Source: Escherichia coli
GTDB lineage: Bacteria; Pseudomonadota; Gammaproteobacteria; Enterobacterales; Enterobacteriaceae
Length of the DNA stretch: 64,000 nt
Strand: one strand, 5' to 3'
Assembly: GCF_030013205.1 (NCBI RefSeq)
Contig: NZ_CP122648.1
In this document: in pieces, positions 11,293 to 49,039 of the stretch
Layout of the letters: every line of letters begins with the position of its first letter
Numbering within the stretch: the stretch's first letter is position 1
Notes under the pieces: model-generated
What the model was told of the DNA's origin: nothing
The model's input: the letters and a program-made list of their open reading frames with translations, nothing else
Databases searched by the model: none
Program-made: the position numbers and the translations under genes

Positions 11293-12536
11293 GCGAGTTG
11301 AGTTATCTGGAAAAATTGCTGGATGGGGTTGTGGTTGAGTGGAAAACCCTTGAGGATATTTCTATAAAGATATCATCTGGAGGAACCCCTAAAACTGGCG
11401 TATCAGAATTTTATGATGGCGACATTCCTTGGTTGCGAACTCAAGAAGTAAACTTTTGTGATATATGGGATACCGAGGTAAAAATAACTGAGTCTGGAGT
11501 TAAAAACTCTAGTGCAAAATGGATACCAAAGAATTGTGTCATTGTTGCTATGTATGGGGCAACTGTGGGGAAAATCGGCATAAACAAAATTCCAATGACA
11601 ACAAATCAAGCGTGCGCAAATATTCAACTTAATGAAGAAGTTGCTCATTATAGATATGTATTTCACTTCTTGTGTAGCCAATACACATATATCAAATCCC
11701 TTGGAACAGGGTCCCAGACAAACATAAATGCGCAGATTGTCAAAAATATTAAGATCCCCATCCCCTGCCCAGAAAACCCGGAAAAATCCCTTGCCATCCA
11801 GTCTGAAATCGTTCGGATTCTGGACAAATTTACTGCACTTACCGCTGAGCTTACCGCTGAGCTTAACATGCGTAAAAAACAGTACAACTACTATCGCGAC
11901 CAGTTGTTGAGTTTTAAAGAGGGTGAGGTTGAGTGGAAAAGTCTGGAAGATATTGCTTTATTTAGACGGGGTTCATTTCCACAGCCATATGGAAATAGTG
12001 AATGGTATGATGGAGAAGGTTGCATGCCTTTTGTTCAGGTAGCTGATGTGGCTGATTCAGGATTTACATTACACACAAAAACCAAACAACAGATTTCTAA
12101 GATTGCACAAAGCAAGAGCGTTTTTGTTGAGGCTGGAACAATTGTTGTGACACTGCAAGGTACTATTGGTCGAGTAGCAATAACACAGTACGATTGTTAT
12201 GTGGATAGAACTCTTGCAATATTTACTAACTTTAAAGTAAAAATAAACAAAAAATACTTTGCTTATCAACTAAAAGCTAAATTCGATTCAGAGAAAGAAT
12301 TTGCAAGAGGAAGTACTTTGAAGACAATTACAAAAGAAGAGTTTTCTAAGTTCCAATTACCTCTTCCCTCAATAAACGAACAAAATCGTATAGTATCACT
12401 ATTGGATAAGTTCGATACACTGGCTCATTCAATAAAACAAGGTCTCCCGCGTGAAATCGAGTTGCGCCAGAAACAATACGAATACTACCGTGATTTACTG
12501 TTCAGTTTCCCGAAACCTGAAACTGCCAGTAATTAA
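11289..12536 (+). CDS. hsdS: Type I restriction-modification system, specificity subunit S (type IC-like, two TAEL repeats in central conserved region)
   Basis: 415 aa with two target-recognition halves each followed by KQYxYYRDxLLSF conserved region; central LTAELTAEL. Confidence 0.85.
11841..11864 (+). repeat. 12-bp tandem repeat (accgctgagctt x2) encoding TAEL-TAEL in hsdS
   Basis: Direct tandem duplication read in sequence; in type IC hsdS genes the copy number of this unit sets the spacer length of the recognition site. Confidence 0.8.
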
Positions 12537-12657
12537 TTGATCATTGCTACCGATCGGACCACCTTAACACCCGGTCAGTATATAGACTATTTTTTACGCG
12601 CCGGAAGTCACCATTACCCCCCTTCCGGCCCTTGCCAGACGGCACAAAGGATGCGCT

Positions 12658-15600
12658 ATGACTCATCAGACACACACCATTGCTGAATCCAATAACTTTA
12701 TCGTTCTTGATAAGTACATCAAAGCTGAGCCAACAGGCGACAGCTACCAGAGCGAATCGGACCTGGAACGTGAACTGATTCAGGACCTGCAAAATCAGGG
12801 TTATGAATTTATTTCCGTAAAATCACAGTCGGCAATGCTATCCAATGTTCGGGAACAGCTTCAGAGCCTCAATGGTGTGATGTTTAATGACAGCGAGTGG
12901 CGGCGCTTCACGGAGCAGTATCTGGACAACCCCAGCGATGGTATTCTGGATAAAACCCGTAAAATCCATATCGACTATATCTGCGACTTTATTTTTGACG
13001 ACGGGCGACTTGAGAACATCTATTTGATAGATAAAAAGAATCTCATGCGCAATAAGGTGCAGATTATCCAGCAGTTTGAACAGACGGGTTCTCATGCTAA
13101 CCGTTATGACGTCACGATCCTGGTTAATGGTTTACCGCTGGTGCAAATCGAACTAAAAAAACGCGGGGTGGCGATTCGTGAGGCTTTCAACCAGATACAT
13201 CGTTACAGTAAAGAGAGTTTTAACAGCGAAAATTCCCTGTTTAAGTATCTGCAACTGTTTGTCATTTCTAACGGCACCGATACCCGTTATTTTGCCAACA
13301 CGACAAAGCGCGATAAAAACAGTTTTGACTTCACCATGAATTGGGCGAAATCAGACAACACGCTGATTAAAGACCTCAAAGACTTTACCGCTACCTTTTT
13401 CCAGAAACATACTCTGCTGAATGTTCTGGTGAACTACAGCGTTTTTGACAGTAGTCAGACGCTACTGGTGATGCGACCGTACCAGATTGCCGCCACCGAG
13501 CGCATTCTGTGGAAAATTAAGAGTTCCTTTACAGCGAAGAACTGGTCAAAACCGGAAAGCGGTGGGTATATCTGGCACACTACCGGTTCTGGTAAAACCC
13601 TCACCAGCTTTAAAGCCGCGCGTCTGGCAACAGAGCTGGACTTTATTGATAAAGTCTTCTTTGTGGTCGACAGGAAAGACCTCGATTACCAGACCATGAA
13701 GGAATATCAGCGTTTTTCGCCAGACAGCGTCAACGGCTCGGAAAATACCGCAGGCCTTAAACGAAATCTGGATAAGGACGATAACAAAATTATCGTCACT
13801 ACTATTCAGAAACTCAATAACCTGATGAAAGCAGAAAGCGACCTGCCTGTATATAATCAGCAAGTGGTGTTTATATTTGATGAATGCCACCGCAGCCAGT
13901 TTGGAGAAGCGCAGAAAAACCTGAAGAAGAAATTCAAACGCTATTATCAGTTTGGTTTTACCGGCACCCCTATTTTCCCGGAAAACGCCTTAGGCTCAGA
14001 AACAACCGCCAGCGTATTTGGTCGTGAATTGCATTCGTATGTAATTACCGATGCGATTCGTGACGAAAAAGTGCTCAAATTCAAAGTGGACTACAACGAT
14101 GTGCGGCCACAGTTTAAGTCTTTAGAGACAGAAACTGACGAGAAAAAACTAAGTGCGGCTGAAAATCAGCAGGCGTTTCTTCATCCCATGCGTATTCAGG
14201 AAATCACGCAATATATTCTGAATAATTTCCGCCAGAAAACTCACCGTACCTTCCCTGGCTCAAAAGGTTTTAATGCTATGTTGGCAGTGAGCAGCGTGGA
14301 TGCCGCGAAAGCCTATTATGCGACGTTTAAACGGTTACAAGAAGAAGCCGCTAATAAATCGGCTACCTATAAACCGCTGCGTATTGCGACAATCTTCTCC
14401 TTTGCCGCCAATGAAGAACAAAATGCCATTGGTGAAATTTCCGATGAAACTTTTGATACCAGCGCAATGGACAGCAGTGCTAAAGAGTTTCTGGACGCTG
14501 CAATTCGTGAATATAACAGCCATTTTAAAACTAACTTTAGCACCGACAGTAACGGTTTTCAGAACTACTATCGTGATTTAGCCCAGCGGGTTAAAAATCA
14601 GGATATCGATCTGCTAATTGTCGTGGGGATGTTTTTAACCGGCTTCGATGCTCCAACATTGAACACGCTATTCGTCGATAAAAACTTGCGTTTTCACGGC
14701 CTGATGCAGGCATTTTCCCGCACCAACCGTATTTATGATGCAACTAAAACCTTCGGTAATATCGTCACTTTCCGGGATCTGGAACGCTCAACTATTGATG
14801 CCATAACGCTGTTTGGTGATAAAAACACCAAAAATGTGGTGTTAGAAAAGAGTTATGCTGAGTATATGGAAGGCTTTACTGATGCTGCTACTGGTGAAGC
14901 TAAACGCGGCTTCATGACAGTAGTTTCAGAACTGGAACAACGGTTCCCTGACCCTGCCAGTATTGAAAGTGAAAAAGAGAAGAAAGACTTCGTTAAACTG
15001 TTTGGCGAATACCTGCGTGCCGAGAACATCCTGCAAAACTATGATGAATTTGCCACGCTAAAAGCCCTGCAACAAATCGATCTTAGCGATCCTGTTGCGG
15101 TAGAAAAATTCAAAGCAGAACATTATGTGGATGATGAAAAGTTCGCTGAATTGCAAACAATTCGTCTCCCTGCTGATCGCAAGATTCAGGATTATCGTTC
15201 TGCCTATAACGATATTCGCGACTGGCAGCGCCGTGAGAAAGAAGCTGAGAAAAAAGAGAAATCAACCACTGACTGGGATGACGTAGTTTTTGAGGTCGAT
15301 TTGCTGAAGTCTCAGGAAATAAACCTGGATTATATCCTTGGACTGATTTTCGAACACAACAGACAAAATAAAGGCAAGGGCGAAATGATCGAAGAGGTCA
15401 AACGCTTAATTCGTTCAAGCCTGGGGAACCGTGCTAAAGAGGGCCTGGTGGTCGATTTTATTCAGCAAACGAACCTGGATGATTTACCGGACAAAGCCAG
15501 CATCATTGACGCATTCTTTACGTTTGCTCAACGCGAACAGCAACGTGAAGCAGAAGCCTTGATCAAAGAAGAAAATCTCAATGAAGAGGCGGCGAAACGC

Positions 15601-15774
15601 TATATTCGCACATCTTTAAAACGCGAATACGCCACCGAAAATGGCACGGAATTAAACGAGACACTGCCCAGACTCAGTCCTTTAAATCCGCAATATAAAA
15701 CGAAAAAACAGACTGTTTTTCAAAAAATTAGCGCATTTATTGAAAAATTTAAGGGGGTGGGTGGAAAGATTTAG
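12658..15774 (+). CDS. hsdR: Type I restriction enzyme endonuclease/helicase subunit R (type IC-like)
   Basis: 1038 aa; SF2 helicase motifs (TGSGKT Walker A, DECHRS DEAH-box); stop codon abuts the IS5 end. Confidence 0.85.
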
Positions 15775-16970
<1,196 letters not shown>

Positions 16971-19645: not shown

Positions 19646-22600
19646 ATGGAGAACATTATGTCGACTGTAGATACCTCTATAGCAGAGGAACTCAATCAAG
19701 GAGGCTCAGATTTTATTCTGACTTCCCTCGAGGCTATGCGTAAGAAGTTATTGGACCTTACGTCTCGAAATCGACTTTTGAATTTCCCTATCACTCAAAA
19801 AGGGTCTTCACTACGTATTGTTGATGAATTACCAGAACAGCTTTATGAAACCCTTTGCTCGGAAATCCCGATGGAATTTGCTCCTGTGCCCGATCCAACT
19901 AGAGCGCAGCTGTTAGAGCATGGCTATCTCAAAGTTGGGCCAGATGGTAAAGATATACAGTTAAGAGCTCATCCTAGCGCTAAGGATTGGGCGCACGTCT
20001 TAGGAATCCGTACAGATTTTGATTTACCAGATAGCCATAAAACGGTTGTTTCTGATTCAGATAGAGAGTTGCTGGAAAAAGCCCATCAGTTTATCTTGCA
20101 ATATGCCCAAGGCCAGAATGGAAAATTAACAGGGATTCGTTCTGAATACGTTAATCAAGGTATAGCTTTGTCAGCGTTGAAGGAGGCGTGCTGCTTAGCA
20201 GGCTATGAAGGGCTTGAGGATTTTGAACGACAGGCAAAGGCTGGGAATGAGATTAGTATATCTTCTTCCAATCCCTCTCATGACGATAATCGGATACAGG
20301 CTCTGCTTTATCCAAATGAACTGGAAGCTTGTTTGCGCGCCATCTATGGTAAGGCTCAAACTGCTTTGGAGGAGAGTGGCGCCAACATCTTGTATTTGGC
20401 GTTAGGGTTCCTTGAGTGGTATGAAAGCGATTCCTCTGAAAAGGCACGTTATGCACCGTTATTTACAATTCCGGTGAGATGTGAACGAGGAAAATTAGAT
20501 CCGAAGGATGGTCTTTACAAGTTTCAACTTTATTACACGGGTGAAGATATTTTGCCCAATCTCTCTTTGAAGGAAAAACTTCAGGCTGACTTTGGCCTCG
20601 CTCTTCCTTTGTTCAATGAAGAGGAAACTCCAGAGTCTTATTTTGCTTCGGTGAAGAAGGTTGTAGAGCAGCACAAACCTAAATGGTCTGTGAAACGTTA
20701 TGGTGCACTTAGCTTGCTCAATTTTGGCAAGATGATGATGTATCTTGACCTCGATCCTGCCCGCTGGCCTTGTGACAAGCGCAATATATTGTCTCATGAA
20801 GTAATTCGTCGCTTTTTCACCAGTCAGAGCTGTGGTCAAGAGAATTCCGGCTTACCTGGTGGCTTCGGTCAGCATGAGTACTGCATCGATAGTTACCCTG
20901 ATATTCATGACAAGGTTCCACTAATCGATGATGCGGATAGCTCGCAGCACAGTGCGTTGATCGATGCTATCCGTGGTCAAAACTTAGTCATTGAGGGCCC
21001 TCCTGGTAGTGGCAAATCACAAACGATCACCAACTTGATTGCAGCAGCTCTGCTCAACGGTAAGAAAGTCCTGTTTGTGGCAGAGAAGATGGCTGCACTG
21101 GAGGTCGTCAAACGTCGCTTGGATCGTGCGGGGCTAGGTCAATTTTGCTTAGAGTTGCACAGTCATAAAACTCATAAGCGCAAGGTGCTGGATGATATTA
21201 ATGCTCGCTTGGTGAGTCAGGCGACCATGCCTACTATGGAAGAGATTGATGCTCAGATTTTGCGTTATGAAGATCTTAAGCAGCAGCTCAATGAATATGC
21301 CGCATTGATCAATAACCAATGGGCGCAAACAGGCAAAACGATCCATCAGATTTTGAGTGGTGCAACCCGTTATCGTCACAAATTAGATATTGATGCAACA
21401 GCACTTCATATCGAAAACCTTTCCGGGAAGCAGTTGGATAAAGTGACCCAATTACGGCTGCGTGACCAAATAGTAGAGTTTAGCCGCATCTACAAAGAGG
21501 TTCGTGAGCAGGTGGGGGCTAATGCAGAAATATATGAGCACCCTTGGAGCGGTGTGAATAACACACAAATTCAATTGTTTGACAGCGCTCGTATAGTCGA
21601 TTTGCTACAAACTTGGCAGACATCAATTATCGACTTTCAACATAGCTATCAAGAATATGTAGATAAGTGGGCGTTAGAAGGCGAAAGCCTTAATACGCTT
21701 CAATATATTGAGCAATTGGTAGAAGATCAGTCGAATCTTCCAGTGTTGTGTGGTTCAGAGCATTTCCCAGCACTTAGTGAGCTAGATTCACCCGATGCCA
21801 TTGCACGGGTGCGTCACTATTTAGATAGGTTCGAGTTGCTACAAGGTCATTATGTGGCCTTGAGCCAGGTTATCGAGCCTCAAAAGCTACGACTTTTAGA
21901 ACAAGGACAATCGTGTGACTTTCCTCGTGAAGAGCTGGAAAAATATGGTGCAGCAGAGGATTTCACTTTACGTGATTTGGTCAGGTGGCTTGAATCCATC
22001 CAATCAATTCATGATGAGTTATCATCTATTTATGCGCAATTAAACGATTTCAAAAATGCTTTGCCAGATGGTATTGCTTCGTATATCGATGATTCGCAAG
22101 CTGGATTGCTATTCTGCTCTGAGTTGTTGTCGATTCTGGGTGCTTTACCGACTGAGCTTATTAGAGTTCGAGATCCTCTTTTTGATGATGATGATATCGA
22201 TGCAGTATTGCGCGACTTAATGTGTCAAATCGAAACATTGCGTCCTTTAAGAGATGGTCTATCTACTTTGTATCAATTGGACCAGTTGCCTTCCCAAGAG
22301 ATGCTCGCGCATGCCGTTGCTGTTATCCAGCAAGGGGGATTATTTGCATGGTTTAAGAGTGATTGGCGTAGTGCCAAGGCACTGCTCATGGCGCAATCTC
22401 GTAAGCCCGACACTAAGTTTGCTGAGTTAAAACGCTGCTCAGCTGATTTGCTCAAGTATTCGGAGCTGTTACAACGGTTTGAACAAAGTGACTTTGGTAA
22501 TCAACTTGGTAATGCATTCCGAGGGTTGGACACCGACTGTGAACAACTCATGTTATTGCGTGATTGGTACAAGAAGGTCCGAGCTTGTTACGGGATAGGT

Positions 22601-25393
22601 TTTGGAAAGCGAGTTGCGATAGGCTCTGGATTATTTAACCTAGATGGTGAGATTATCAAAGGTGTGCATTTAATCGAGAAATCGCAGATTAGCTCAAGAT
22701 TAATGACTTTGGTTAAACGGGTCGAGCACGAGGCTAAGTTATTACCGCGTATTTCTAGCTTGTTGGAAGAACATGCATCTTGGTTAGGTGAGCAAGGTGT
22801 ATTGATGCAATCTTACCGACAGGTGCGGAATACTCTCATTGCCTTGCAGGGATGGTTTATCAATCCAGATATATCATTAGAGCAGATGACTCATTCCTCC
22901 GAGATTTTGCAAAACATAAACGATCTTCAGATATCCCTTGAAAATGACTCGTTACAGTTAGGGGCGTTTTTACAATTAACCCCATTGGCTTGCGGTGCGT
23001 ATAAAAATAATCAACTGACGTTAGACACTATTAACGACACGCTGAATTTTGCCGAGCAACTGGTTGATAAGATAAATTGCGTATCCTTGGCTACCCAGAT
23101 CAGACATTTGGCTAGTGGTAGTGATTACGATTTACTATGTCGTGATGGTGGGGAAATAGTTTCGAAATGGAATGAACAGATTAAAAATGCTGAGTTATAT
23201 GCGCTAGAAACAAAGTTAGAGCGGAGTCAGTGGCTCAAGTCGACTGATGGTTCTCTTAATACATTAATCGAGCGCAACGAAAGAGCAATACAGCAACCCC
23301 GTTGGTTGAACGGGTGGGTTAACTTTATTCGTTGTTACGAGCAGATGGATGAAAACGGATTGCAGCGAATCTGGAGTGCTGTACTTGCGGGCTCGCTCCC
23401 GATTGAAAAAGTTGAATTGGGTTTAGCATTAGCAATTCATGACCAGCTGGCGCGGGAGGTTATTCACATCCACCCTGAATTGATGAGAGTTTCCGGCTCA
23501 CAGCGCAATGCTTTGCAGAAGTCATTTAAAGATTACGACAAAAAACTGATTGAATTACAACGTCAGCGGATTGCAGCAAAAATTGCTTGCCGAAATATAC
23601 CAGAAGGGAATTCTGGTGGTAAGAAAAGCGAATATACAGAACTAGCTTTGATCAAAAATGAGTTGGGTAAAAAAACCAGACATATTCCAATTAGACAATT
23701 GGTTAACCGTGCATGTAATGCGCTGGTTGCAATTAAACCTTGTTTCATGATGGGGCCAATGTCAGCAGCTCATTACCTAGAACCTGGACGAATGGAATTT
23801 GATCTGGTGGTGATGGACGAAGCGTCTCAGGTGAAGCCAGAGGATGCATTGGGTGTCATCGCGAGGGGCAAGCAACTAGTGGTCGTTGGTGACCCGAAAC
23901 AGCTACCACCAACCAGTTTCTTTGATCGAAGTGCCGACGGAGAAGATGACGATGATGCCGCGGCTTTAAGTGATACTGACAGCATTTTGGATGCTGCTTT
24001 GCCACTGTTTCCTATGAGACGTTTGCGTTGGCACTATCGTTCACGACATGAAAAGTTGATTGCATACTCTAACCGCCATTTTTATAACAGTGATTTGGTG
24101 ATATTCCCTTCCCCAAATGCTGAGTCTCCAGAGTATGGGATTAAATTTACCTATGTGTCAAAAGGTCGGTTCTCCAATCAACACAATATTGAAGAAGCCC
24201 AAGCAGTTGCTGAGGCCGTACTTCATCATGCGCAACACCGGCCGGGTGAGTCACTCGGGGTAGTGGCCATGAGTTCCAAGCAACGCGATCAAATTGAGCG
24301 CGCTATCGATGAATTGCGCCGAAATCGCCCTGAATTTAACGATGCAATCGATGGCTTATATGCCATGGAAGAGCCACTTTTTGTGAAAAACCTTGAGAAC
24401 GTTCAAGGGGATGAGCGTGATGTAATCTTTATTTCCTTTACCTATGGACCTTCTGAGCATGGTGGAAAGGTTTATCAACGCTTTGGACCTATCAATTCCG
24501 ATGTTGGCTGGCGTCGCTTGAATGTGCTTTTCACTCGATCAAAAAAACGGATGCATGTGTTTAGTTCAATGCGTTCTGAAGATGTATTGACGAGTGAAAC
24601 CAGTAAACTTGGTGTTATTTCGTTGAAAGGTTTTTTACAGTTTGCCGAAAGTGGCAAACTAGATTCCCTCACAACGCATACCGGCAGGGCTCCAGATAGT
24701 GACTTTGAGGTTGCTGTAATGGAAGCACTCAATCACGCTGGGTTTGAGTGTGAACCTCAGGTAGGGGTTGCAGGATTCTTTATTGATCTAGCTGTGAAAG
24801 ATCCAGGTTGTCCTGGCCGTTACTTAATGGGCATAGAGTGTGATGGTGCGGCTTATCACTCAGCTAAATCTGCTCGTGATCGTGACCGTTTGCGTCAAGA
24901 GGTTCTGGAGCGTTTGGGTTGGAGAATTAGCCGCATTTGGTCCACTGATTGGTTCAGTAATCCTGATGAGGTTCTATCTCCGATTATCCGTAAACTCCAT
25001 GAGCTTAAAACATTGGCTCCAGACGTTGTTGTACCTTCCTATGAATATGTAGAAACGATTGAGTCAAGCGCTGAAGTGGCGTCTGACTCAATTGATTCTC
25101 TTATGCCCAATTTGGGGCTTAAGGAGCAACTTAAGTATTTTGCCACACATGTCATTGAGGTTGAGCTTCCTAATGTTGATGCTGATCGTCGTTTGTTGCG
25201 GCCCGCAATGCTTGAGGCTTTGCTGGAACATCAGCCTTTATCACGTTCCGAGTTTGTTGAACGAATACCTCATTATCTGCGGCAAGCAACAGATGTATAC
25301 GAAGCGCAACGCTTTCTTGACCGAGTCTTGGCATTAATTGATGGCGCAGAGGCTGAAGCGAATGATGCAGCGTTTGAGTCTGAATTGGCATAA
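19646..25393 (+). CDS. Large (1915-aa) DUF4011 / SF1 Upf1-like helicase / Vsr-like (PD-(D/E)xK) endonuclease / DUF3320-type protein; architecture matches the single-gene Hhe-type defence family
   Basis: N-terminal LLDLTSRNRLLNF; Walker A GPPGSGKSQT; Walker B VVMDEASQ; motif III VVGDPKQLPPT; motif VI NVLFTRSKKR; C-terminal GIECDGAAYHSAKSARDRDRLRQEVLERLGWRISRIWSTDW. Start may be ATG 19658 (better-spaced GGAG). Confidence 0.8.
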   Translation: MENIMSTVDTSIAEELNQGGSDFILTSLEAMRKKLLDLTSRNRLLNFPITQKGSSLRIVDELPEQLYETLCSEIPMEFAPVPDPTRAQLLEHGYLKVGPDGKDIQLRAHPSAKDWAHVLGIRTDFDLPDSHKTVVSDSDRELLEKAHQFILQYAQGQNGKLTGIRSEYVNQGIALSALKEACCLAGYEGLEDFERQAKAGNEISISSSNPSHDDNRIQALLYPNELEACLRAIYGKAQTALEESGANILYLALGFLEWYESDSSEKARYAPLFTIPVRCERGKLDPKDGLYKFQLYYTGEDILPNLSLKEKLQADFGLALPLFNEEETPESYFASVKKVVEQHKPKWSVKRYGALSLLNFGKMMMYLDLDPARWPCDKRNILSHEVIRRFFTSQSCGQENSGLPGGFGQHEYCIDSYPDIHDKVPLIDDADSSQHSALIDAIRGQNLVIEGPPGSGKSQTITNLIAAALLNGKKVLFVAEKMAALEVVKRRLDRAGLGQFCLELHSHKTHKRKVLDDINARLVSQATMPTMEEIDAQILRYEDLKQQLNEYAALINNQWAQTGKTIHQILSGATRYRHKLDIDATALHIENLSGKQLDKVTQLRLRDQIVEFSRIYKEVREQVGANAEIYEHPWSGVNNTQIQLFDSARIVDLLQTWQTSIIDFQHSYQEYVDKWALEGESLNTLQYIEQLVEDQSNLPVLCGSEHFPALSELDSPDAIARVRHYLDRFELLQGHYVALSQVIEPQKLRLLEQGQSCDFPREELEKYGAAEDFTLRDLVRWLESIQSIHDELSSIYAQLNDFKNALPDGIASYIDDSQAGLLFCSELLSILGALPTELIRVRDPLFDDDDIDAVLRDLMCQIETLRPLRDGLSTLYQLDQLPSQEMLAHAVAVIQQGGLFAWFKSDWRSAKALLMAQSRKPDTKFAELKRCSADLLKYSELLQRFEQSDFGNQLGNAFRGLDTDCEQLMLLRDWYKKVRACYGIGFGKRVAIGSGLFNLDGEIIKGVHLIEKSQISSRLMTLVKRVEHEAKLLPRISSLLEEHASWLGEQGVLMQSYRQVRNTLIALQGWFINPDISLEQMTHSSEILQNINDLQISLENDSLQLGAFLQLTPLACGAYKNNQLTLDTINDTLNFAEQLVDKINCVSLATQIRHLASGSDYDLLCRDGGEIVSKWNEQIKNAELYALETKLERSQWLKSTDGSLNTLIERNERAIQQPRWLNGWVNFIRCYEQMDENGLQRIWSAVLAGSLPIEKVELGLALAIHDQLAREVIHIHPELMRVSGSQRNALQKSFKDYDKKLIELQRQRIAAKIACRNIPEGNSGGKKSEYTELALIKNELGKKTRHIPIRQLVNRACNALVAIKPCFMMGPMSAAHYLEPGRMEFDLVVMDEASQVKPEDALGVIARGKQLVVVGDPKQLPPTSFFDRSADGEDDDDAAALSDTDSILDAALPLFPMRRLRWHYRSRHEKLIAYSNRHFYNSDLVIFPSPNAESPEYGIKFTYVSKGRFSNQHNIEEAQAVAEAVLHHAQHRPGESLGVVAMSSKQRDQIERAIDELRRNRPEFNDAIDGLYAMEEPLFVKNLENVQGDERDVIFISFTYGPSEHGGKVYQRFGPINSDVGWRRLNVLFTRSKKRMHVFSSMRSEDVLTSETSKLGVISLKGFLQFAESGKLDSLTTHTGRAPDSDFEVAVMEALNHAGFECEPQVGVAGFFIDLAVKDPGCPGRYLMGIECDGAAYHSAKSARDRDRLRQEVLERLGWRISRIWSTDWFSNPDEVLSPIIRKLHELKTLAPDVVVPSYEYVETIESSAEVASDSIDSLMPNLGLKEQLKYFATHVIEVELPNVDADRRLLRPAMLEALLEHQPLSRSEFVERIPHYLRQATDVYEAQRFLDRVLALIDGAEAEANDAAFESELA

Positions 25394-25415: not shown

Positions 25416-25586
25416 GTGACAACTGTCGGACAACGTGAACGCGCAACTCAACAGCGCGTAATCAGGTTTTTTATTGAGGAATTGGGCTATCGTTATCTAG
25501 GCGATTGGCACAAGCGTCCTAACAACCGTAATGTTGAGCCTGATTTGCTCAGTCATTGGTTGATTGACCGTGGTGTTGTGGACTGA
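25416..25586 (+). pseudogene. N-terminal stub (56 codons) resembling a restriction R-subunit-type N-terminus, truncated by IS3-family insertion
   Basis: GTG-initiated ORF VTTVGQRERATQQRVIRFFIEELGYRYLGDW... ends in the TGA formed by the first bases of the IS at 25584. Confidence 0.45.
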
Positions 25587-25613
25587 CCCCACGCCCGTAG
25601 ACAAATTCTGTCC

Positions 25614-26062
25614 TCACGACGAGGCCTGTTCGAAGGCCTCCGGACTGACGCCGCCGAGGTGACTGTGGCGCCGGGCCCGGTTGTAGAACACTTCAATGTA
25701 ATCGAAGATATCCGCCCGGGCTAGATCCCGGGTTTTGTATATTCTCTTCCTGATGCGCTCTTTTTTCAGTGAACTGAAGAACGATTCGGCCACCGCATTA
25801 TCCCAGCAGTTGCCACGCCGGCTCATGCTCGGGACCAGGTTATTAGCCCGGCAGAAGTGCTGCCAGTCGTCACTGCCGTACTGGCTTCCCTGGTCTGAGT
25901 GCACGATGACCTCGCCGTCGGGTTTACGTCGCCAGACCGCCATCATCAGTGCATCCAGCGCCAGTTCGCGTGAGAGAGTGGGCTTCATCGACCAGCCCAC
26001 CACGTTACGGGCGAAGAGATCGATAACCACCGCCAGATACAGCCAGCCCTGCCAGGTGCGGA
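25614..26062 (-). pseudogene. IS3-family transposase OrfB, 3' exon (DDE domain C-terminal part) downstream of intron
   Basis: ...RTWQGWLYLAVVIDLFARNVVGWSMKP...HSDQGSQYGS...GNCWDNAVAESFF...; joins in frame with DVTYI on the other side of the intron. Confidence 0.8.
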
Positions 26063-26113
26063 GTAGAGTAAGAGGCAGGGCGTAGTCGGACTATTTCCCT
26101 GCCTCTCCTCCCC

Positions 26114-26147
26114 GAACCGGACGTGCACCTTTCAGCGCATCCGGCTC
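26114..26147 (-). ncRNA. Group II intron domain V (catalytic hairpin)
   Basis: Minus strand reads GAGCCGGAUGCGCUGAAAGGUGCACGUCCGGUUC, matching the domain V consensus pattern (GAGC...GAAA...GUUC). Confidence 0.8.
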
Positions 26148-26152
26148 TCCAT

Positions 26153-27676
26153 TTAAATGCTGGCGAACGCCATTGCCACTTCTGTAAAGCGCGATGTATA
26201 CGTGTTTCTGGTCTCCGTCCTCAGATAGGGATTACCTTCGGGTAGCCGCCAGCGGAACAGCTTCTTGCCTTGCCCCACCAACCGGTACAGTATTTCGCCG
26301 CTGAGCTTGCCGTGATTGGTTTTACCAAATAAAACCCACGTTTTGCTCTGACCCGGTTTCGGTGATTTACACCACCACCTCATCAGGGAAGCGATACCTG
26401 TACGGTATTTGTGGGCCAGCCAGTGAGCCAGCTTCCAGAACACGACACGGTCGATATAACTGAAGACTTTGGCCTTAAAATCAACGAACTGATAGAACAT
26501 GGCCCAGCCTTTCAGTTTTCGGTTGAGTTGTTCAGCCATATCGACTTTGCTTTCACTGTAGTTGCCTGATAACAGTGCTGTCAGCGATGCGGCGAAGTTT
26601 CTGGCTTTCTCCTGCGGGATCGTTGAGACCACTCGCATCTCGCCATAACGACTGCGTTTGCGAATGATCCTGTGCCCCAGAAAGATAAAGCCGTCATTAA
26701 CATGGGTGATTTTAGTCTTATCCATGTTCAGCCTGAGTTTCAGACTGCCTTTGAGCACACCCCGACACTCCTCCCTGATGGCTTCCGCCTGTGCTTTGGT
26801 GCCTTTGACGATGAGGACAAAATCATCGGCATAGCGGCAGTACGCCACCGCGGGTTTCCACTGCCAGTTTTCTCTGACCGCCGTACTTCGGCCCCGTTGG
26901 ATACTGTTATTCCAGTACCACCGATCTTTTCTGGCTTTCCCGCTCAGGTAGCGCTCATGCAGGTATTGATCGAACTCATTCAGCATGATGTTCGATAATA
27001 GCGGCGATATAACACCGCCCTGTGGCACACCTTCACTGGCCGCCCGAAAGAGACCGACATCGATATGTCCCGCCTTGATGGTTTTCCACAGCAGAGTCAT
27101 GAAACGTGCGTCACTGATCCTGCGGCGTACAGCCTTCATCAGCAGTCGATGATGTACGGTGTCGAAGTAACTGGACAGGTCGCCTTCAATCACCCAGCGT
27201 CCCCGGGTTTCACCACAGTCTGTGAGCTGTAATTTCACCGTGCGGATCGCGTGGTGGACACTGCGCTCAGGCCGGAAGCCATATGAGAGCGTATGAAAAT
27301 CACTCTCCCATATCGGCTCCATCGCCATCAGCATGGCCCGCTGAACAATACGATCCCGCAACGCGGGGATACCCAGTGGTCGCAGTTTGCCGTTGCTTTT
27401 AGGGATGTAAACCCGTCTGGCGGGCAAGGGCTGGTAGTGGCCTGAGAGTAATTCATCCCTGAGGATTTGCAGCTCAACAGCCAGTCTGGCCTGTAGCATT
27501 GTTTTGTTCACGCCATCAACGCCGGGGGTATGGGCCCCCTTTGATGAAAGCGTGATCCGCGCCGCTTCAGCCAGCCATTCTGGTTGTGTTATCAGACGCA
27601 GCAGCCGTTGAATCCGTAGGGACGGATCGGTGGCTGCCCATGTGGCAAGCTTGCGTTGCATTTCGCTGATTATCAA
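26153..27676 (-). CDS. Group II intron-encoded reverse transcriptase/maturase
   Basis: 507-aa ORF with RT motifs incl. YADDFV; no HNH-type endonuclease cysteine motifs seen at C-terminus. Confidence 0.85.
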   Translation of the reverse strand: MIISEMQRKLATWAATDPSLRIQRLLRLITQPEWLAEAARITLSSKGAHTPGVDGVNKTMLQARLAVELQILRDELLSGHYQPLPARRVYIPKSNGKLRPLGIPALRDRIVQRAMLMAMEPIWESDFHTLSYGFRPERSVHHAIRTVKLQLTDCGETRGRWVIEGDLSSYFDTVHHRLLMKAVRRRISDARFMTLLWKTIKAGHIDVGLFRAASEGVPQGGVISPLLSNIMLNEFDQYLHERYLSGKARKDRWYWNNSIQRGRSTAVRENWQWKPAVAYCRYADDFVLIVKGTKAQAEAIREECRGVLKGSLKLRLNMDKTKITHVNDGFIFLGHRIIRKRSRYGEMRVVSTIPQEKARNFAASLTALLSGNYSESKVDMAEQLNRKLKGWAMFYQFVDFKAKVFSYIDRVVFWKLAHWLAHKYRTGIASLMRWWCKSPKPGQSKTWVLFGKTNHGKLSGEILYRLVGQGKKLFRWRLPEGNPYLRTETRNTYTSRFTEVAMAFASI

Positions 27677-28332
27677 AGGTCTTCACCTCGTTAGGTCAGT
27701 TAATTCACGTCGTAAACACATTCAAACTGCTTCCCTTCGCCATGTAATGGGCTTTCCCCATCGCGGACTACTACGGAAGCTCCGCCAGCCAGCGCGTCAT
27801 CGGAGCCATGCCCCCTTAACATCCGTCGCTGACCTTCCCCGGTTTACCTGCCTGGACTCAGGCATACTGAGGAGGCTGCCCGTCGCACTCTTTATCCTTG
27901 CTTGCCGCAAGTTGGCAGAAGTCAGCAACGCAAGCGTGATAGACGCTGCTGCCCCGGTGTTTCGCATACATGTCAAAACACCTTCGACCGGCAGTGCTTA
28001 CGTATCACTGCCAGTTCCTCCTGCACGGCCTGTCAGATCACGTAGGCCGTGGTGACGTTTTCAACCCACAGAGGCGGATTAACGGGTTCATGTTCTTCAG
28101 CCTTTCAGTACTTAACCTTGAGGATCATCTCGGCTTAGTGATCTCGCCTCAATCCCCGTTGTCAGCGGGTTACATCACCTTGCGGGCATGCCGCAGGTCA
28201 CTGCCGCTCAGGTTCTCCACCGTCACACCCGGTGGGATTGTTGGGTTTCTCATCGTGAGTTACCGGTTCAATATTCCAGACAGATTCGCGGTTCATTTAA
28301 GCATCCATGCCCGCCCTGAACTCCGGGCACAC

Positions 28333-28761
28333 TATAGGTCACATCACCGCACCACACCTGATTTGGCTCGGTCACGGCGAACTGCCGTTCAAGGTAGTTA
28401 GGGATAGCAACGTGCTCATGACCGCCACGCTTATACCGGTGAGTCGGCTGCTGGCAACTGACCAGTCCCAGCTCTTTCATGAGTCTGCCAGCAAGCCAGC
28501 GCCCCATCTGGTAGCCTCTCCGGGTTGCCATTGTGGCGATGCTTCTTGCTCCGGCAGAGCCGTGGCTGATGCCATGCAGTTCAAGTACCTGGCTGCGTAA
28601 TACAGCCCGTCTGCCGTCTGGCTTTTCAGGACGGTTTTTCCAGTATTTGTAGCTGCTGCGATGGACCCCGAACACATGGCAGAGAGTGGCCACAGGATAA
28701 CGCGCCCTGAGTTTCCCGATTATCGAGAACTGTTCAGGGAGTCTGACATCAAGAGCGCGGT
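28333..28761 (-). pseudogene. IS3-family transposase OrfB, 5' part (between IS30 and intron)
   Basis: ...[44 protein letters not shown]...[11 protein letters not shown] then intron 5' end. Confidence 0.7.
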
Positions 28762-29982
28762 TGTAGATTCAATTGGTCAACGCAACAGTTATGTGAAAAC
28801 ATGGGGTTGCGGAGTTTTTTTGAATGAGACGAACATTTACAGCAGAGGAAAAAGCCTCTGTTTTTGAACTATGGAAGAACGGAACAGGCTTCAGTGAAAT
28901 AGCGAATATCCTGGGTTCAAAACCCGGAACGATCTTCACTATGTTAAGGGATACTGGCGGCATAAAACCCCATGAGCGTAAGCGGGCTGTAGCTCACCTG
29001 ACACTGTCTGAGCGCGAGGAGATACGAGCTGGTTTGTCAGCCAAAATGAGCATTCGTGCGATAGCTACTGCGCTGAATCGCAGTCCTTCGACGATCTCAC
29101 GTGAAGTTCAGCGTAATCGGGGCAGACGCTATTACAAAGCTGTTGATGCTAATAACCGAGCCAACAGAATGGCGAAAAGGCCAAAACCGTGCTTACTGGA
29201 TCAAAATTTGCCATTGCGAAAGCTTGTTCTGGAAAAGCTGGAGATGAAATGGTCTCCAGAGCAAATATCAGGATGGTTAAGGCGAACAAAACCACGTCAA
29301 AAAACGCTGCGAATATCACCTGAGACAATTTATAAAACGCTGTACTTTCGTAGCCGTGAAGCGCTACACCACCTGAATATACAGCATCTGCGACGGTCGC
29401 ATAGCCTTCGCCATGGCAGGCGTCATACCCGCAAAGGCGAAAGAGGTACGATTAACATAGTGAACGGAACACCAATTCACGAACGCTCCCGAAATATCGA
29501 TAACAGACGCTCTCTGGGGCATTGGGAGGGCGATTTAGTCTCAGGTACAAAAAACTCTCATATAGCCACACTTGTAGACCGAAAATCACGTTATACGATC
29601 ATCCTTAGACTCAGGGGCAAAGATTCTGTCTCAGTAAATCAGGCTCTTACCGACAAATTCCTGAGTTTACCGTCAGAACTCAGAAAATCACTGACATGGG
29701 ACAGAGGAATGGAACTGGCCAGACATCTAGAATTTACTGTCAGCACCGGCGTTAAAGTTTACTTCTGCGATCCTCAGAGTCCTTGGCAGCGGGGAACAAA
29801 TGAGAACACAAATGGGCTAATTCGGCAGTACTTTCCTAAAAAGACATGTCTTGCCCAATATACTCAACATGAACTAGATCTGGTTGCTGCTCAGCTAAAC
29901 AACAGACCGAGAAAGACACTGAAGTTCAAAACACCGAAAGAGATAATTGAAAGGGGTGTTGCATTGACAGATTGAATCTACA
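28762..29982 (+). mobile_element. IS30 insertion sequence (1221 bp) nested in the IS3-family element
   Basis: Terminal IRs TGTAGATTCAATTGGTCAACGCAA ... TTGCATTGACAGATTGAATCTACA; length as expected for IS30. Confidence 0.9.
28824..29975 (+). CDS. insI: IS30 transposase
   Basis: 383-aa ORF MRRTFTAEEKASVFELWKNGTGFSEIANILGSKPGTIF... Confidence 0.9.
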   Translation: MRRTFTAEEKASVFELWKNGTGFSEIANILGSKPGTIFTMLRDTGGIKPHERKRAVAHLTLSEREEIRAGLSAKMSIRAIATALNRSPSTISREVQRNRGRRYYKAVDANNRANRMAKRPKPCLLDQNLPLRKLVLEKLEMKWSPEQISGWLRRTKPRQKTLRISPETIYKTLYFRSREALHHLNIQHLRRSHSLRHGRRHTRKGERGTINIVNGTPIHERSRNIDNRRSLGHWEGDLVSGTKNSHIATLVDRKSRYTIILRLRGKDSVSVNQALTDKFLSLPSELRKSLTWDRGMELARHLEFTVSTGVKVYFCDPQSPWQRGTNENTNGLIRQYFPKKTCLAQYTQHELDLVAAQLNNRPRKTLKFKTPKEIIERGVALTD

Positions 29983-30239
29983 GCGGCTTTTTTTAATATG
30001 TCCCGTTCGTCGGTAACCCGTTTCAGCTCTTTCTGGAGACGGCGGATCTCGGCCTGAGCATCTGACTGTTCTTTATTAGTGGAAGAATCCGGACCGTACT
30101 TCTTTATCCAGGCATAAAGGCTGTGGGTGGTGATATCGAGACGTGTTGCAACGCTGGCAACAGAATAACCACGATCAACAACCTGTTTGACTGCTTCAGT
30201 TTTAAACTCTTCGGGATAACGCTTACCGCTCATGGGCAC
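29983..30239 (-). pseudogene. IS3-family OrfA (HTH transposase N-terminal protein), 3' end disrupted by IS30
   Basis: MSGKRYPEEFKTEAVKQVVDRGYSVASVATRLDITTHSLYAWIKKY...; ORF then runs into the IS30 terminus. Confidence 0.75.
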
Positions 30240-30927
30240 CTCTCTTTAAGCCATCTTAAATGACTCTGAGGTGTCTGTTAAACCCGTGGCGATTCACGTA
30301 TCGCATTGGGCAAACTAAAGATGTGTATGTCTATTACCCAACTGTGAGAGATACTGAAATTACAACATTTGAAGAAACTCTGGATAACCTCCTACAACGC
30401 CGACGAGCATTGGCCAGAGATATGCTCTGCGCTACTCCCGATTTGAACTGTGCGGATTTTGAGACCATTTTGAAGGGAGCCTAACCGATATGAGCGGCAA
30501 TACTGCCAGTTGCCAAACCTGAAATAACACTTAGCTGTGATGATTCGCTATTACCTACCGATAGCTTCGGAAAACATAAATTAAAAATGCCCAGGGGAGT
30601 ACTATTATCGTTAGCATTACCCGAACGCCGTATTAACGGTTATTTATTGGTAAGTGCTACGTTCCATGGCAAGAGTTCATCAACACGGTTAGCCGACAGT
30701 ATATTGAGTATATGGCGCAGATATGCTTGCGGATTGATACCATTCAGACAGCAGGTCCCGCTCAGCCCGTACAGTAGAGCGCCGTTCACTACCGTAATCA
30801 CTGCCGAAAAACACATTGATTGCCCCTCAATAATCCTGCCGTCAACGTCAAAATTGCTGGTCGGGCTCGACTTATTTAATTGTGTAAACAGGGCCTCTCA
30901 GCGAAGGCCCTTATGCATCACCTGATG

Positions 30928-47012: not shown

Positions 47013-47020
47013 GGATAAAT

Positions 47021-49039
47021 ATGTTACGTAATGGAAATAAATATCTCCTGATGCTGGTGAGTATAATTATGCTCACTGCGTGCATTAGCCAGTCAAGAAC
47101 ATCATTTATACCGCCACAGGATCGCGAATCTTTACTCGCCGAGCAACCGTGGCCGCATAATGGTTTTGTGGCGATTTCATGGCATAACGTTGAAGACGAA
47201 GCTGCCAACCAGCGTTTTATGTCAGTGCGGACATCAGCACTGCGTGAACAATTTGCCTGGCTGCGCGAGAACGGTTATCAACCGGTCAGTATTGCTCAAA
47301 TTCGTGAAGCACATCGAGGAGGAAAACCGCTACCGGAAAAAGCAGTAGTGCTGACTTTTGATGACGGCTACCAGAGTTTTTATACCCGCGTCTTCCCAAT
47401 TCTTCAGGCCTTCCAGTGGCCTGCTGTATGGGCCCCCGTCGGCAGTTGGGTCGATACGCCAGCGGATGAACAAGTAAAATTTGGCGATGAGATGGTCGAT
47501 CGAGAATATTTTGCCACGTGGCAACAAGTGCGAGAAGTTGCGCGTTCCCGGCTCGTTGAGGTCGCTTCTCATACATGGAATTCTCACTACGGTATTCAGG
47601 CTAATGCCACCGGCAGCTTATTGCCTGTATATGTAAATCGTGCATATTTTACTGACCACGCACGGTATGAAACCGCAGCAGAATACCGGGAAAGAATTCG
47701 TCTGGATGCTGTAAAAATGACGGAATACCTGCGTACAAAGGCTAAGGTAAATCCACACGTTTTTGTTTGGCCTTATGGCGAAGCGAATGGCATAGCGATA
47801 GAGGAATTAAAAAAACTCGGTTATGACATGTTCTTCACCCTTGAATCAGGTTTGGCAAATGCGTCACAATTGGATTCCATTCCGCGAGTATTAATCGCCA
47901 ATAATCCCTCATTAAAAGAGTTTGCCCAGCAAATTATTACCGTACAGGAAAAATCACCACAACGGATAATGCATATCGATCTTGATTACGTTTATGACGA
48001 AAACCGCCAGCAAATGGATCGCAATATTGATGTGCTAATTCAGCGGGTGAAAGATATGCAAATATCAACCGTGTATTTGCAGGCATTTGCTGATCCCGAT
48101 GGTGATGGGCTGGTCAAAGAGGTCTGGTTTCCAAATCGTTTGCTACCAATGAAAGCAGATATTTTTAGTCGGGTTGCCTGGCAATTACGTACCCGCTCAG
48201 GTGTAAACATCTATGCGTGGATGCCGGTATTAAGCTGGGATTTAGATCCCACATTAACGCGAGTAAAATACTTACCGACTGGGGAGAAAAAAGCACAAAT
48301 TCATCCTGAACAATATCGCCGTCTCTCTCCTTTCGATGACAGAGTCAGAGCACAAGTTGGCATGTTATATGAAGATCTTGCCGGACATGCTGCTTTTGAT
48401 GGCATATTGTTCCACGATGATGCTTTGCTTTCAGATTATGAAGATGCCAGTGCACCGGCTATCACGGCTTATCAGCAAGCAGGCTTTAGCGGGAGTCTGA
48501 GCGAAATTCGACAAAACCCGGAGCAATTTAAACAGTGGACCCGCTTTAAAAGTCGTGCGTTAACTGACTTCACTTTAGAACTTAGTGCGCGCGTAAAAGC
48601 CATTCGCGGTCCACATGTTAAAACTGCACGAAATATTTTTGCACTTCCGGTAATACAACCTGAAAGTGAAGCCTGGTTTGCACAGAATTATGCTGATTTC
48701 CTAAAAAGCTATGACTGGACCGCTATTATGGCTATGCCTTATATGGAAGGTGTCGCAGAAAAATCGGCTGACCAATGGTTAATACAATTGACCAATCAAA
48801 TTAAAAACATCCCTCAGGCTAAAGACAAATCTATTTTAGAATTACAGGCACAAAACTGGCAGAAAAATGGTCAGCATCAGGCTATTTCTTCGCAACAACT
48901 CGCTCACTGGATGAGCCTATTACAACTGAATGGAGGGAAAAACTATGGTTATTATCCCGACAATTTTCTGCATAACCAACCTGAAATAGACGTTATTCGT
49001 CCTGAGTTTTCAACAGCCTGGTATCCGAAAAATGATTAA
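47021..49039 (+). CDS. pgaB: Poly-beta-1,6-N-acetylglucosamine N-deacetylase lipoprotein PgaB
   Basis: 672-aa ORF with lipobox (LTAC). Confidence 0.9.

Follow-up and report, generated by a model that had tools for sequence, protein, structure and literature searches.

A full-length E.c.I4 group II intron within a hybrid IS3-family element beside hhe in Escherichia coli

The window analyzed here, a stretch of 64,000 nucleotides of Escherichia coli (contig NZ_CP122648.1), contains on its minus strand a complete group II intron of 2,270 nt at positions 26063 to 28332, delimited by alignment to published copies of E.c.I4. By direct reading, the 5' junction (28333|28332) is ...GTGACCTATA|GTGTGCCCGG and the 3' junction (26063|26062) is ...CTTACTCTAC|TCCGCACC, both on the minus strand. 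The intron opens with the 5' splice-site consensus GUGUG (GUGYG; 28328 to 28332, minus strand), which is the same in every E.c.I4 copy compared, and closes with UAC, the last base of which is 26063 and which fits the group II AY rule. The ends initially proposed, GUGUGCC at 28332 and AC at 26063, are exact, and published E.c.I4 copies end identically. Compared with E.c.I4-10 of E. coli IAI39 (NC_011750, 489783 to 492052; catalogued in Table S3 of PMC3522654), the window intron is 99.69% identical, with 7 mismatches, no gaps, the same length of 2,270 nt, and identical terminal bases; compared with E.c.I4-2b of E24377A, the identity is 99.60% over the intron. In the Zimmerly database, group II intron copies that are more than 95% identical receive one name (PMC3552965), and with 99.6 to 99.7% full-length nucleotide identity the window intron falls under E.c.I4. 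Judged from its sequence, it is a known, named element that is very common and not new. Matches to E.c.I4 occur in 2,664 of the 5,426 complete E. coli genomes, about half, and in 2,181 plasmids; the element was named and surveyed more than 20 years ago, and RefSeq annotates it automatically. Among the matches listed, the 100%-identical intron appears in 15 records, which all derive from isolates of swine or wild boar, and is the sole intron copy in each of these listed records. The window copy carries five private G-to-A changes, two of which are nonsynonymous (E304K and R417H). Another ORF of 502 aa in the window, at 56155 to 57663, is putP, which rules out a second intron copy there.

Rfam model RF00029 (domains V/VI) aligns along its whole length to positions 26149 to 26063 of the minus strand, with 64.9 bits (gathering threshold, 40) and an E value of 1.7e-10, and the terminus of the alignment coincides with the intron end at 26063. 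Within this match, domain V (26114 to 26147, minus strand; GAGCCGGAUGCGCUGAAAGGUGCACGUCCGGUUC) is the catalytic hairpin, with its AGC triad, 2-nt bulge, and GAAA loop. The domain V model RF04356 matches precisely the same interval, and in the centroid fold it forms the canonical helix, including the 2-nt bulge and the GAAA tetraloop (z = -4.8; 0 of 200 shuffles as good). Domain V therefore lies and reads as first described. Domain VI, together with the 3' end ...UAC (26063 to 26111, minus strand; placed by the Rfam alignment and by folding), forms a long helix (z = -5.2). The MFE and centroid structures both display a single bulged A (26069), the putative branch point, which lies 7 nt from the 3' end and also agrees with the Rfam structure line. 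Domains I to III lie 5' of the ORF, at approximately 27677 to 28332 (minus strand). For this region, RNAalifold, applied to the window copy and its relatives from Klebsiella (91% identity over the full intron), Yersinia (about 92 to 95%), and Salmonella (about 85%), returned a plausible multihelix consensus of 187 pairs, only 5 of which show compensatory changes. A single-sequence MFE fold of the same region gave no domain-by-domain picture. In a permissive scan, no Rfam group II D1-D4 family matched the intron, the DV/DVI models alone doing so.

Exon-binding sites can be proposed as candidates. Candidate EBS1 (28065 to 28070, minus strand; intron nt 263 to 268, UGUGGG) would pair with exon positions -6 to -1 (CCUAUA) and is the top-scoring site, with 17 of 18 pairs across three natural target types, a score equaled by 178 of 300 shuffles. 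For the stretch adjoining IBS1 (exon positions -12 to -7), the top site is candidate EBS2 (28172 to 28177, minus strand; intron nt 156 to 161, UGAUGU), again with 17 of 18 pairs over the three target types (equaled by 124 of 300 shuffles) and unpaired in the consensus fold. An alternative EBS2 candidate is found at intron nt 275 to 280. The contiguous arrangement that it would form with EBS1 (nt 263 to 269) had been favored by the change from C276:G-10 to U276:A-10 in the Klebsiella and Yersinia relatives. However, E.c.I4 itself is found in targets with A at -10, and the contiguous arrangement was dropped because nt 156 to 161 suits all target types better. In both cases 40 to 60% of shuffled sequences score as high, and neither arrangement is significant.

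The intron-encoded protein is specified by ltrA, which lies in domain IV (26153 to 27661, minus strand), and is a 502-aa product with RT and maturase (X) regions according to TIGR04416, Pfam, and the RefSeq annotation, in which the identical ORF is ltrA, WP_063085042.1. The TIGR04416 group II RT/maturase model gives 339.8 bits (cutoff, 300; E = 1.8e-101). The sole Pfam matches are RVT_1 at residues 91 to 337 (E = 1.2e-34) and GIIM at residues 361 to 426 (E = 3.3e-10), in the numbering of the 507-aa TTG-start form; no HNH or zinc-finger Pfam domain was detected in the protein, and its last 100 residues contain one Cys, three His, and no CxxC pairs. The early reading of an RT and maturase protein devoid of HNH is thereby upheld. 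The absence of HNH agrees with the assignment of E.c.I4 to bacterial class A, En-less (PMC3552965), in which we place the protein. The YADD motif at 277 is intact and there is no internal stop; the ORF, like the ribozyme, looks intact. The private changes E304K and R417H nevertheless replace residues that are retained in the Klebsiella relative, at 91% nucleotide identity, and the window copy may be impaired.

The intron lies in the orfB gene of an IS3-family element, three codons past the first Asp of the catalytic DDE triad (..W..D(V/I)TY|I..), a site that is conserved in IS3-family transposase genes. Ligation of the exons yields a single open frame, the Pfam rve domain (integrase core, E = 1e-29) crosses the exon junction, and both flanks match the NF033516 IS3 transposase, at profile positions 104 to 225 and 227 to 369. 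Empty sites are available in the intron-free IS3-family copies L004 and L005, which are colinear through the junction ...GTGACCTATA|TC... with no gap. The agreement of the intron and its junctions with these models and controls goes far beyond what chance would give. The insertion point is identical in loci L002, L003, and L007 to L010, and E.c.I4 occupies it in three distinct IS3-family exon contexts, the Klebsiella relative representing a fourth. These observations bear out two further proposals of the preliminary description, namely, that the junctions exactly restore an IS3-family OrfB frame and that the intron homes into mobile-element targets. The latter matches the published properties of E.c.I4 (PMC3522654, PMC3552965), the targets of which are IS629, IS911, ISEc16, and ISEc31 (PMC3522654).

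The host is a composite of three IS3-family lineages and an IS30. Exon 1 (28333 to 28761, minus strand; NF033516 positions 104 to 225) is the 5' portion of an orfB of the IS911/ISEc52-like type and ends with ...GDVTY and the first base of Ile. It is 97 to 98% identical to exon 1 of L003, L005, L009, and L010, and together with IS30 it is about 98 to 99% identical to L014/L015. Exon 2 (25579 to 26062, minus strand; NF033516 positions 227 to 369) is the 3' portion of another IS3-family orfB, with its stop codon at 25614 to 25616 and a right terminal repeat ...GGGGTCAGTCCA that corresponds to the left repeat, TGGACTGACCCC..., in the L008/L006 element. With the downstream flank, it is 99.8% identical to L007/L008, whereas its identity to exon 2 of L014/L015 is 54 to 74%. 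Identity to ISEc52 is 98 to 100% in exon 1, before the intron site, but 56 to 68% beyond it, and the reverse is seen with the ATCC 8739 element (92 to 98% in exon 2 but 72 to 82% before the intron site). By blastn, no similarity was found between exon 1 of L007/L008 and that of the window. The third lineage provides the left terminal repeat and orfA (29983 to 30296, minus strand; NF033516 positions 1 to 82), with the repeat TGAATCGCCACGGG... starting at 30296 and the ATG at 30233. This part is 99.7% identical to the orfA part of L010 and 65% to ISEc52, and it is colinear with L004 from the terminal repeat.

Between orfA and orfB lies IS30 (1,221 bp; 28762 to 29982, plus strand), with its transposase at 28824 to 29975 (NF033563, 276 bits) and terminal repeats TGTAGATTCAAT... 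at both ends; IS30 is also annotated at the identical locus in RefSeq. It is inserted 5 nt after the frameshift heptamer TTAAAAAAAGCCGC that ends orfA. No clean 2-bp duplication flanks the window IS30 (..GCCGC| and |ACCGCGCTC..), unlike the IS30 of L014/L015 (..GGCTAC|IS30|ACCGCG..). The frameshift region of IS3-family elements (TTAAAAAAAGC...) may be a recurrent IS30 hot spot. The terminal repeats of the host element, left TGAATCGCCACGGG... and right (reverse complement) TGGACTGACCCCACGCCC..., are mismatched and come from different elements, no target duplication was found around it, and its flanks are unrelated gene fragments. In its repeats, its orfA-orfB contiguity, and its target duplication, the host thus departs from a functional IS3-family IS.

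This organization contradicts the suggestion that transposase expression would depend on splicing. Since IS30 parts orfA and the frameshift site from orfB and the exons come from two different IS3-family elements, the most that splicing could yield is a hybrid OrfB without the DNA-binding part of OrfA. In addition, the transcription of the window intron copy is doubtful, because the sole upstream sigma-70-like site is located past the antisense IS30. On gene order and exon composition, the transposase gene is irreparable by splicing and the host is already dead. The lesson is that an intron whose removal exactly restores a reading frame does not imply expression dependent on splicing.

Very probably, the full-length E.c.I4 resides in a host that became hybrid through homologous recombination between two intron copies, with a further joint at or within IS30. 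From what is known of the family, E.c.I4, a self-splicing ribozyme, would have spread by retrohoming, the spliced RNA and the protein reverse-splicing into DNA before cDNA copying. The upstream parent would have had the arrangement IS911-like::IS30::E.c.I4 and the downstream parent that of a different IS3-family element::E.c.I4 beside hhe, with its exon 2 and terminal repeat; both arrangements are known from other E. coli genomes. A crossover between the two E.c.I4 copies, for which the 2.27-kb intron would serve as portable homology, may then have joined them, and the additional joint would be placed at or inside IS30. The parental loci considered here are taken from other strains and stand for types rather than demonstrated ancestors. 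In L014/L015, IS30, exon 1, and the intron are 98 to 99% identical to those of the window, but exon 2 and the right terminal repeat are different. Within the intron, SNPs at nt 700 and 1085 agree with the left-hand parent; these are the only two informative sites between copies that are about 99.6% identical. From the flanks and these two SNPs, we infer that the crossover occurred within the intron. E.c.I4 is followed by a window-type exon 2 in 138 genomes, among which are 27 hybrids, i.e., the hybrid arrangement is present in 27 of 5,426 genomes. In the parent-type loci L004 to L010, no match to the window upstream flank was found, save a short type I R-M fragment.

The order of events could also be reversed, the hybrid IS arising first through IS3-family recombination at the conserved ..TATATC.. 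motif and E.c.I4 retrohoming into it later. E.c.I4 tolerates diverse IS3-family targets and IS3-family elements are mosaic here, as illustrated by L010, in which the left end is of type 1 and the right end of the IS911 type. Yet the stretch in which the two exon lineages agree at the junction is only about 6 nt, insufficient for homologous recombination, and none of the 5,426 complete E. coli genomes has an intron-free copy that spans 80% or more of the hybrid IS. Moreover, both intron-containing, nonhybrid parents were found, one in the same position beside hhe, and the two SNPs track the left-hand parent, which makes a hybrid that preceded the intron improbable. Even less probable is an origin during intron mobility, whether by reverse splicing that stayed partial or by homing that depends on recombination and co-converts the donor 5' exon into the recipient, as in yeast mitochondrial introns. 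Such an event would place a donor-type exon 1 before a recipient-type exon 2 and change from one to the other precisely at the intron, as is observed, but the replacement here reaches far past exon 1, taking in IS30, orfA, and the left terminal repeat as well as unrelated genes in the flank. Its resolution would need upstream homology, of which blastn detects none between the exon-1 lineages, and the region upstream of the IS is not syntenic between the hybrid and L008-type loci. In bacteria, En-less introns insert by complete reverse splicing and are not known to co-convert their flanks, which also counts against this route.

The neighborhood could suggest something other than an intron, namely, a retron or defense-associated RT in a defense island beside Hhe, since the element adjoins the antiphage gene hhe and type I R-M genes and gives subthreshold matches to retron, Drt2, and Drt3a RT models. 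These matches reach 18 to 54 bits against cutoffs of 200 to 600, while TIGR04416 passes its own. The maturase domain, the Rfam DV/DVI matches, the exact junctions with empty sites, and the near identity to a named intron refute such an identity, to which we attach no probability. The domain V/VI models, the RT/maturase ORF, and the exact junctions all agree with the group II intron originally proposed, and recombination between two copies of this intron, E.c.I4, is the origin of the hybrid that we retain.

A broader reading, to which we give even chances, is that two nested ectopic recombinations, one between E.c.I4 copies and one involving IS30, produced the three-lineage hybrid IS3-family element and joined two unrelated island segments beside hhe, the product being fixed in a lineage in which swine pathogenic strains predominate. 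Should this hold generally, tandems of an intron within an IS would measurably drive the reshuffling of defense islands in E. coli.

The window intron resembles the published E.c.I4 copies of IAI39 and E24377A in its length, its ends, its IS3-family orfB site, and its En-less RT/maturase; unlike them, it carries the five private G-to-A changes, exons from two elements, and an IS30 upstream. S.f.I1 of Shigella flexneri is 99% identical to E.c.I4. More distant is the relative on a Klebsiella pneumoniae IncN plasmid (L012; ltrA, WP_032417327.1), which has the same length of 2,270 nt and the same architecture and follows ..VTDITY| of an IS3-family-like target; at 91% nucleotide identity, with 38 differing residues in the protein, it falls below the 95% naming threshold. 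A fragment on Yersinia pestis pMT (about 92 to 95% identity) is truncated at intron nt 1159, and the Salmonella pESI-like relative (about 85%) has a 5' end of GUAUA; both likewise fall below the naming threshold. These three relatives may share the DI-DIII fold with the window intron, with a few compensatory changes.

The same working principle is found in RmInt1 of Sinorhizobium meliloti, a class D, En-less RT/maturase intron whose natural homing site lies inside an IS transposase gene, that of ISRm2011-2. RmInt1 is described as being without a DNA-binding/endonuclease domain (PMC4615759). The two introns differ in class (D versus A) and in the family of the host IS, and no significant nucleotide similarity was found beyond short DIII/DV-like matches to Sinorhizobium plasmids. 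As for recombination, Leclercq and Cordaux argued that intron/IS tandems of more than 3 kb are prone to homologous recombination (PMC3522654), and Hudson et al., working with a culture of K. pneumoniae, reported that about 4% of molecules were recombinant across the repeats of the rRNA operon and of the group II intron, each present in 8 copies (PMC4048246). In comparison with these cases, the product described here has reached fixation in a lineage (27 of 5,426 genomes), and both parental arrangements are identifiable. The locus very probably offers a clear worked example of genome rearrangement for which a mobile intron supplies the portable homology, a phenomenon previously predicted and seen at the level of subpopulations.

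The intron on the minus strand of the window (26063-28332) is E.c.I4, as follows from its near-identity to published copies, from the IS3-like targets published for that element, and from its listing in class A. It can be aligned over all 2,270 nt, without gaps and with identical first and last bases, to the IAI39 copy E.c.I4-10 (99.69% identity) and to the E24377A copy E.c.I4-2b (99.60%), whose coordinates were given by Leclercq and Cordaux (PMC3522654). The published targets of E.c.I4 are specific sites within the IS3-like transposases of IS629, IS911, ISEc16, and ISEc31 (PMC3522654), and the intron belongs, with S.f.I1, to ORF class A, among the classes that lack an endonuclease domain (Toro and Martínez-Abarca, PMC3552965). 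The element is already named, classified, and surveyed, and it is very common: among 5,426 complete genomes of E. coli, 2,664 have matches, and 1,873 contain a site that spans 80% or more of the intron; a further 2,181 matching plasmids come from genera that include Escherichia, Klebsiella, Salmonella, Enterobacter, and Yersinia. An approximately 85%-identical relative on a Salmonella Infantis pESI-like plasmid (L013, ~2196-2200) starts with GUAUA instead of GUGUG, has no ltrA annotation beneath it, and is probably a decayed copy.

Both junctions can be read directly on the minus strand, as ...GGTGATGTGACCTATA/GTGTGCCCGGAG... at 28333/28332 and ...CCTCTTACTCTAC/TCCGCACCTGGCAG... at 26063/26062. 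Scanning the entire window with Rfam at the gathering threshold yielded RF00029 (gathering score, 40) as the sole group II intron match, covering the full model at 26149-26063 on the minus strand (64.9 bits, E=1.7e-10), and the domain-V-only model RF04356 places domain V exactly at 26114-26147. Folded in isolation, domain V adopts the canonical centroid structure of helix, 2-nt bulge, helix, and GAAA loop (z=-4.8), and domain VI forms a long helix (z=-5.2) from which a single A bulges at 26069, 7 nt before the 3' end; none of 200 shuffles folded as well as either domain. Rfam lacks a D1-D4 model for the E.c.I4 class; folding DI-DIII together with three relatives gave a plausible consensus, with only five compensatory pairs. 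The intron-encoded protein, labeled ltrA in RefSeq, is a 502-aa ORF on the minus strand (ATG 27661 to stop 26153-26155) that scores 339.8 bits against TIGR04416 (group II intron RT/maturase; curated cut-off, 300) and keeps an intact YADD motif. Pfam detects RVT_1 and GIIM in it and no other domain, and CxxC and HNH features are absent from its C-terminal tail. Upstream of ltrA, in the ribozyme part, RefSeq also annotates a 40-aa "hypothetical protein," WP_258055306.1 (6511-6633 of the identical locus L001, window ~27700-27822, minus strand), which is almost certainly a spurious call inside structured RNA.

The ligated exons (28333-28761 and 25579-26062, minus strand) form a single open frame, and a Pfam integrase-core domain spans their junction. 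Intron-less IS3-family copies in other E. coli strains are colinear through the insertion point, with no gap. The preliminary description of the intron thus held in every detail, from the 3' end at 26063, the base on which RF00029 terminates, and domain V to an ORF with RT and maturase features lacking HNH motifs and the exon joining that restores the OrfB frame; its classification was also correct, the type now being resolved as E.c.I4, class A (PMC3552965).

E.c.I4 occupies one insertion point in three exon contexts (...GGTGATGTGACCTATA/TC, ...GGAGATATTACGTATA/TC, and ...CCGACATTACTTATA/TC), with a fourth in the 91%-identical Klebsiella relative. At the protein level, the insertion point reads W..D(V/I)TY/I, which we take, from the Pfam rve match and what is generally known of this fold, to lie three codons past the first catalytic Asp in the DDE triad. 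One intron would thereby be able to use many IS3-family members. The sequences at intron nt 263-268 (UGUGGG) and nt 156-161 (UGAUGU) each form 17 of 18 pairs over three target types, but since 40-60% of shuffles equal their scores, they are candidates only for EBS1 and EBS2, respectively.

One earlier proposal, that expression of the host transposase depends on splicing, fails for this copy. A complete IS30 (28762-29982, transposase on the plus strand) lies upstream of exon 1, 5 nt past the IS3-family slippery heptamer (...TTAAAAAAAGCCGC/IS30/ACCGCGCTCTTGATG...). OrfA (ATG 30233) is on its far side, as is the left terminal repeat (TGAATCGCCACGGG..., from 30296). Because IS30 splits orfA and the heptamer from orfB, an OrfAB fusion transposase is impossible regardless of the intron. 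Moreover, judged by sequence similarity, the two exons differ in ancestry. Up to the intron site, exon 1 shares 98-100% identity with an ISEc52 copy (L005), which falls to 56-68% beyond it; exon 2 shares 92-98% identity with the ATCC 8739 element (L006), with only 72-82% identity before the site. The partner of the right terminal repeat (...GTCTACGGGCGTGGGGTCAGTCCA, ending at 25579) is the left repeat TGGACTGACCCCACCCCGGTAGAC of the L006/L008 element, not the left repeat in the window. No uninterrupted copy of the hybrid IS is present in the 5,426 genomes. The gene fragments on either side of the IS (25416-25578 and 30297-30484, both plus strand) are unrelated: one is N-terminal and resembles by eye the start of a type I restriction HsdR, the other is C-terminal with an SNF2-helicase-like ..RIGQTKDVYVYY.. 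motif. No target-site duplication is present, in keeping with a rearrangement and not with a simple insertion.

IS30 is found directly after the IS3-family -1 frameshift heptamer (TTAAAAAA(A/G)GC../TGTAGATTC) at several places: 29976-29996 in the window (minus strand), ~2304 in L006, ~5265 and, on the minus strand, ~1252 in comparison locus L009, and ~2480-2500 in L014/L015. Since these comprise at least three orfA lineages and both orientations, they suggest a recurrent hot-spot for IS30 insertion in the frameshift window, which consists of the A-run plus GC.

The window copy of E.c.I4 retains an open ORF and intact ribozyme landmarks. Its five private substitutions (intron nt 48, 153, 620, 1581, and 1921; window 28285, 28180, 27713, 26752, and 26412) are all G-to-A on the intron sense strand, a pattern in which five changes are too few for interpretation. 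Two alter the protein, E304K and, in the maturase domain, R417H, at residues conserved even in the Klebsiella relative. The only upstream sigma-70-like site on the intron strand, a consensus match at 30281-30253, belongs to the left end of the IS and is separated from the intron by the antisense IS30.

The surroundings resemble a defence island associated with a tRNA and ending before pgaABC (44589-50357). After tRNA-Ser(GGA) (5415-5502, plus strand) come the full set of type I R-M genes (hsdM, hsdS, hsdR; 9736-15774, plus strand) and an IS5 (15922-16902, minus strand). The DUF4011 anti-phage protein Hhe, a 1,915-aa ORF (19646-25393, plus strand; NF042953, 2,738 bits against a cut-off of 2,000), directly adjoins the intron-bearing IS, and the pair is syntenic in other strains. 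An Rfam match to IS102 RNA (8246-8482, minus strand, 73.3 bits), adjoining ORFs at 7340-8302 and 8450-9322, indicates a further IS-related element in the island. Beyond the island lie putP (56155-57663), putA (58020-62048), and a sequence that Rfam matches over the full length of Ysr251 (Yersinia sRNA 251; 50827-51020, plus strand, 192.8 bits, E=2e-52), antisense to a 354-aa ORF at 50822-51886.

Two arrangements in other strains would account for the mosaic host. In ETEC O6:H16 M9682-C1 and strain S43 (L007/L008), an E.c.I4 copy is followed by the window-type exon 2, downstream flank, and hhe gene, and exon 1, from the cognate element, shows no blastn similarity to that of the window. Strain B27 and plasmid p1046-3E9 (L014/L015) carry the window-type IS30, exon 1, and intron at 98-99% identity but differ in exon 2 and in the right repeat. 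The window combines the left part of the latter with the right part of the former, the intron alone being common to both. Recombination between E.c.I4 copies would thus join the IS30 and exon 1 side to the exon 2 and hhe side. Since the only two informative SNPs in the intron (nt 700 and nt 1085) agree with the left-hand parent, the crossover most likely fell within intron nt 1086-2270. IS30 in L014/L015 has a clean 2-bp target duplication (..GGCTAC/IS30/ACCGCG..), whereas the left IS30 junction of the window (..GCCGC/) belongs to a further orfA lineage, 99.7% identical to L010. An additional joint therefore lies at or inside IS30. Swine or wild boar are the source of all 17 best-matching records of the hybrid (99.8-100% identity), among them ETEC and O139:H1 strains, and in each of 15 records with a 100% identical intron, among the matches listed, that intron is the sole copy. 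The mosaic host is a neat example of a known effect of nested mobile elements: ectopic recombination across intron copies was proposed for precisely such intron/IS tandems (PMC3522654), and in Klebsiella such recombinants were seen at the sub-population level (PMC4048246), whereas the full hybrid arrangement described here is present in 27 of 5,426 genomes.
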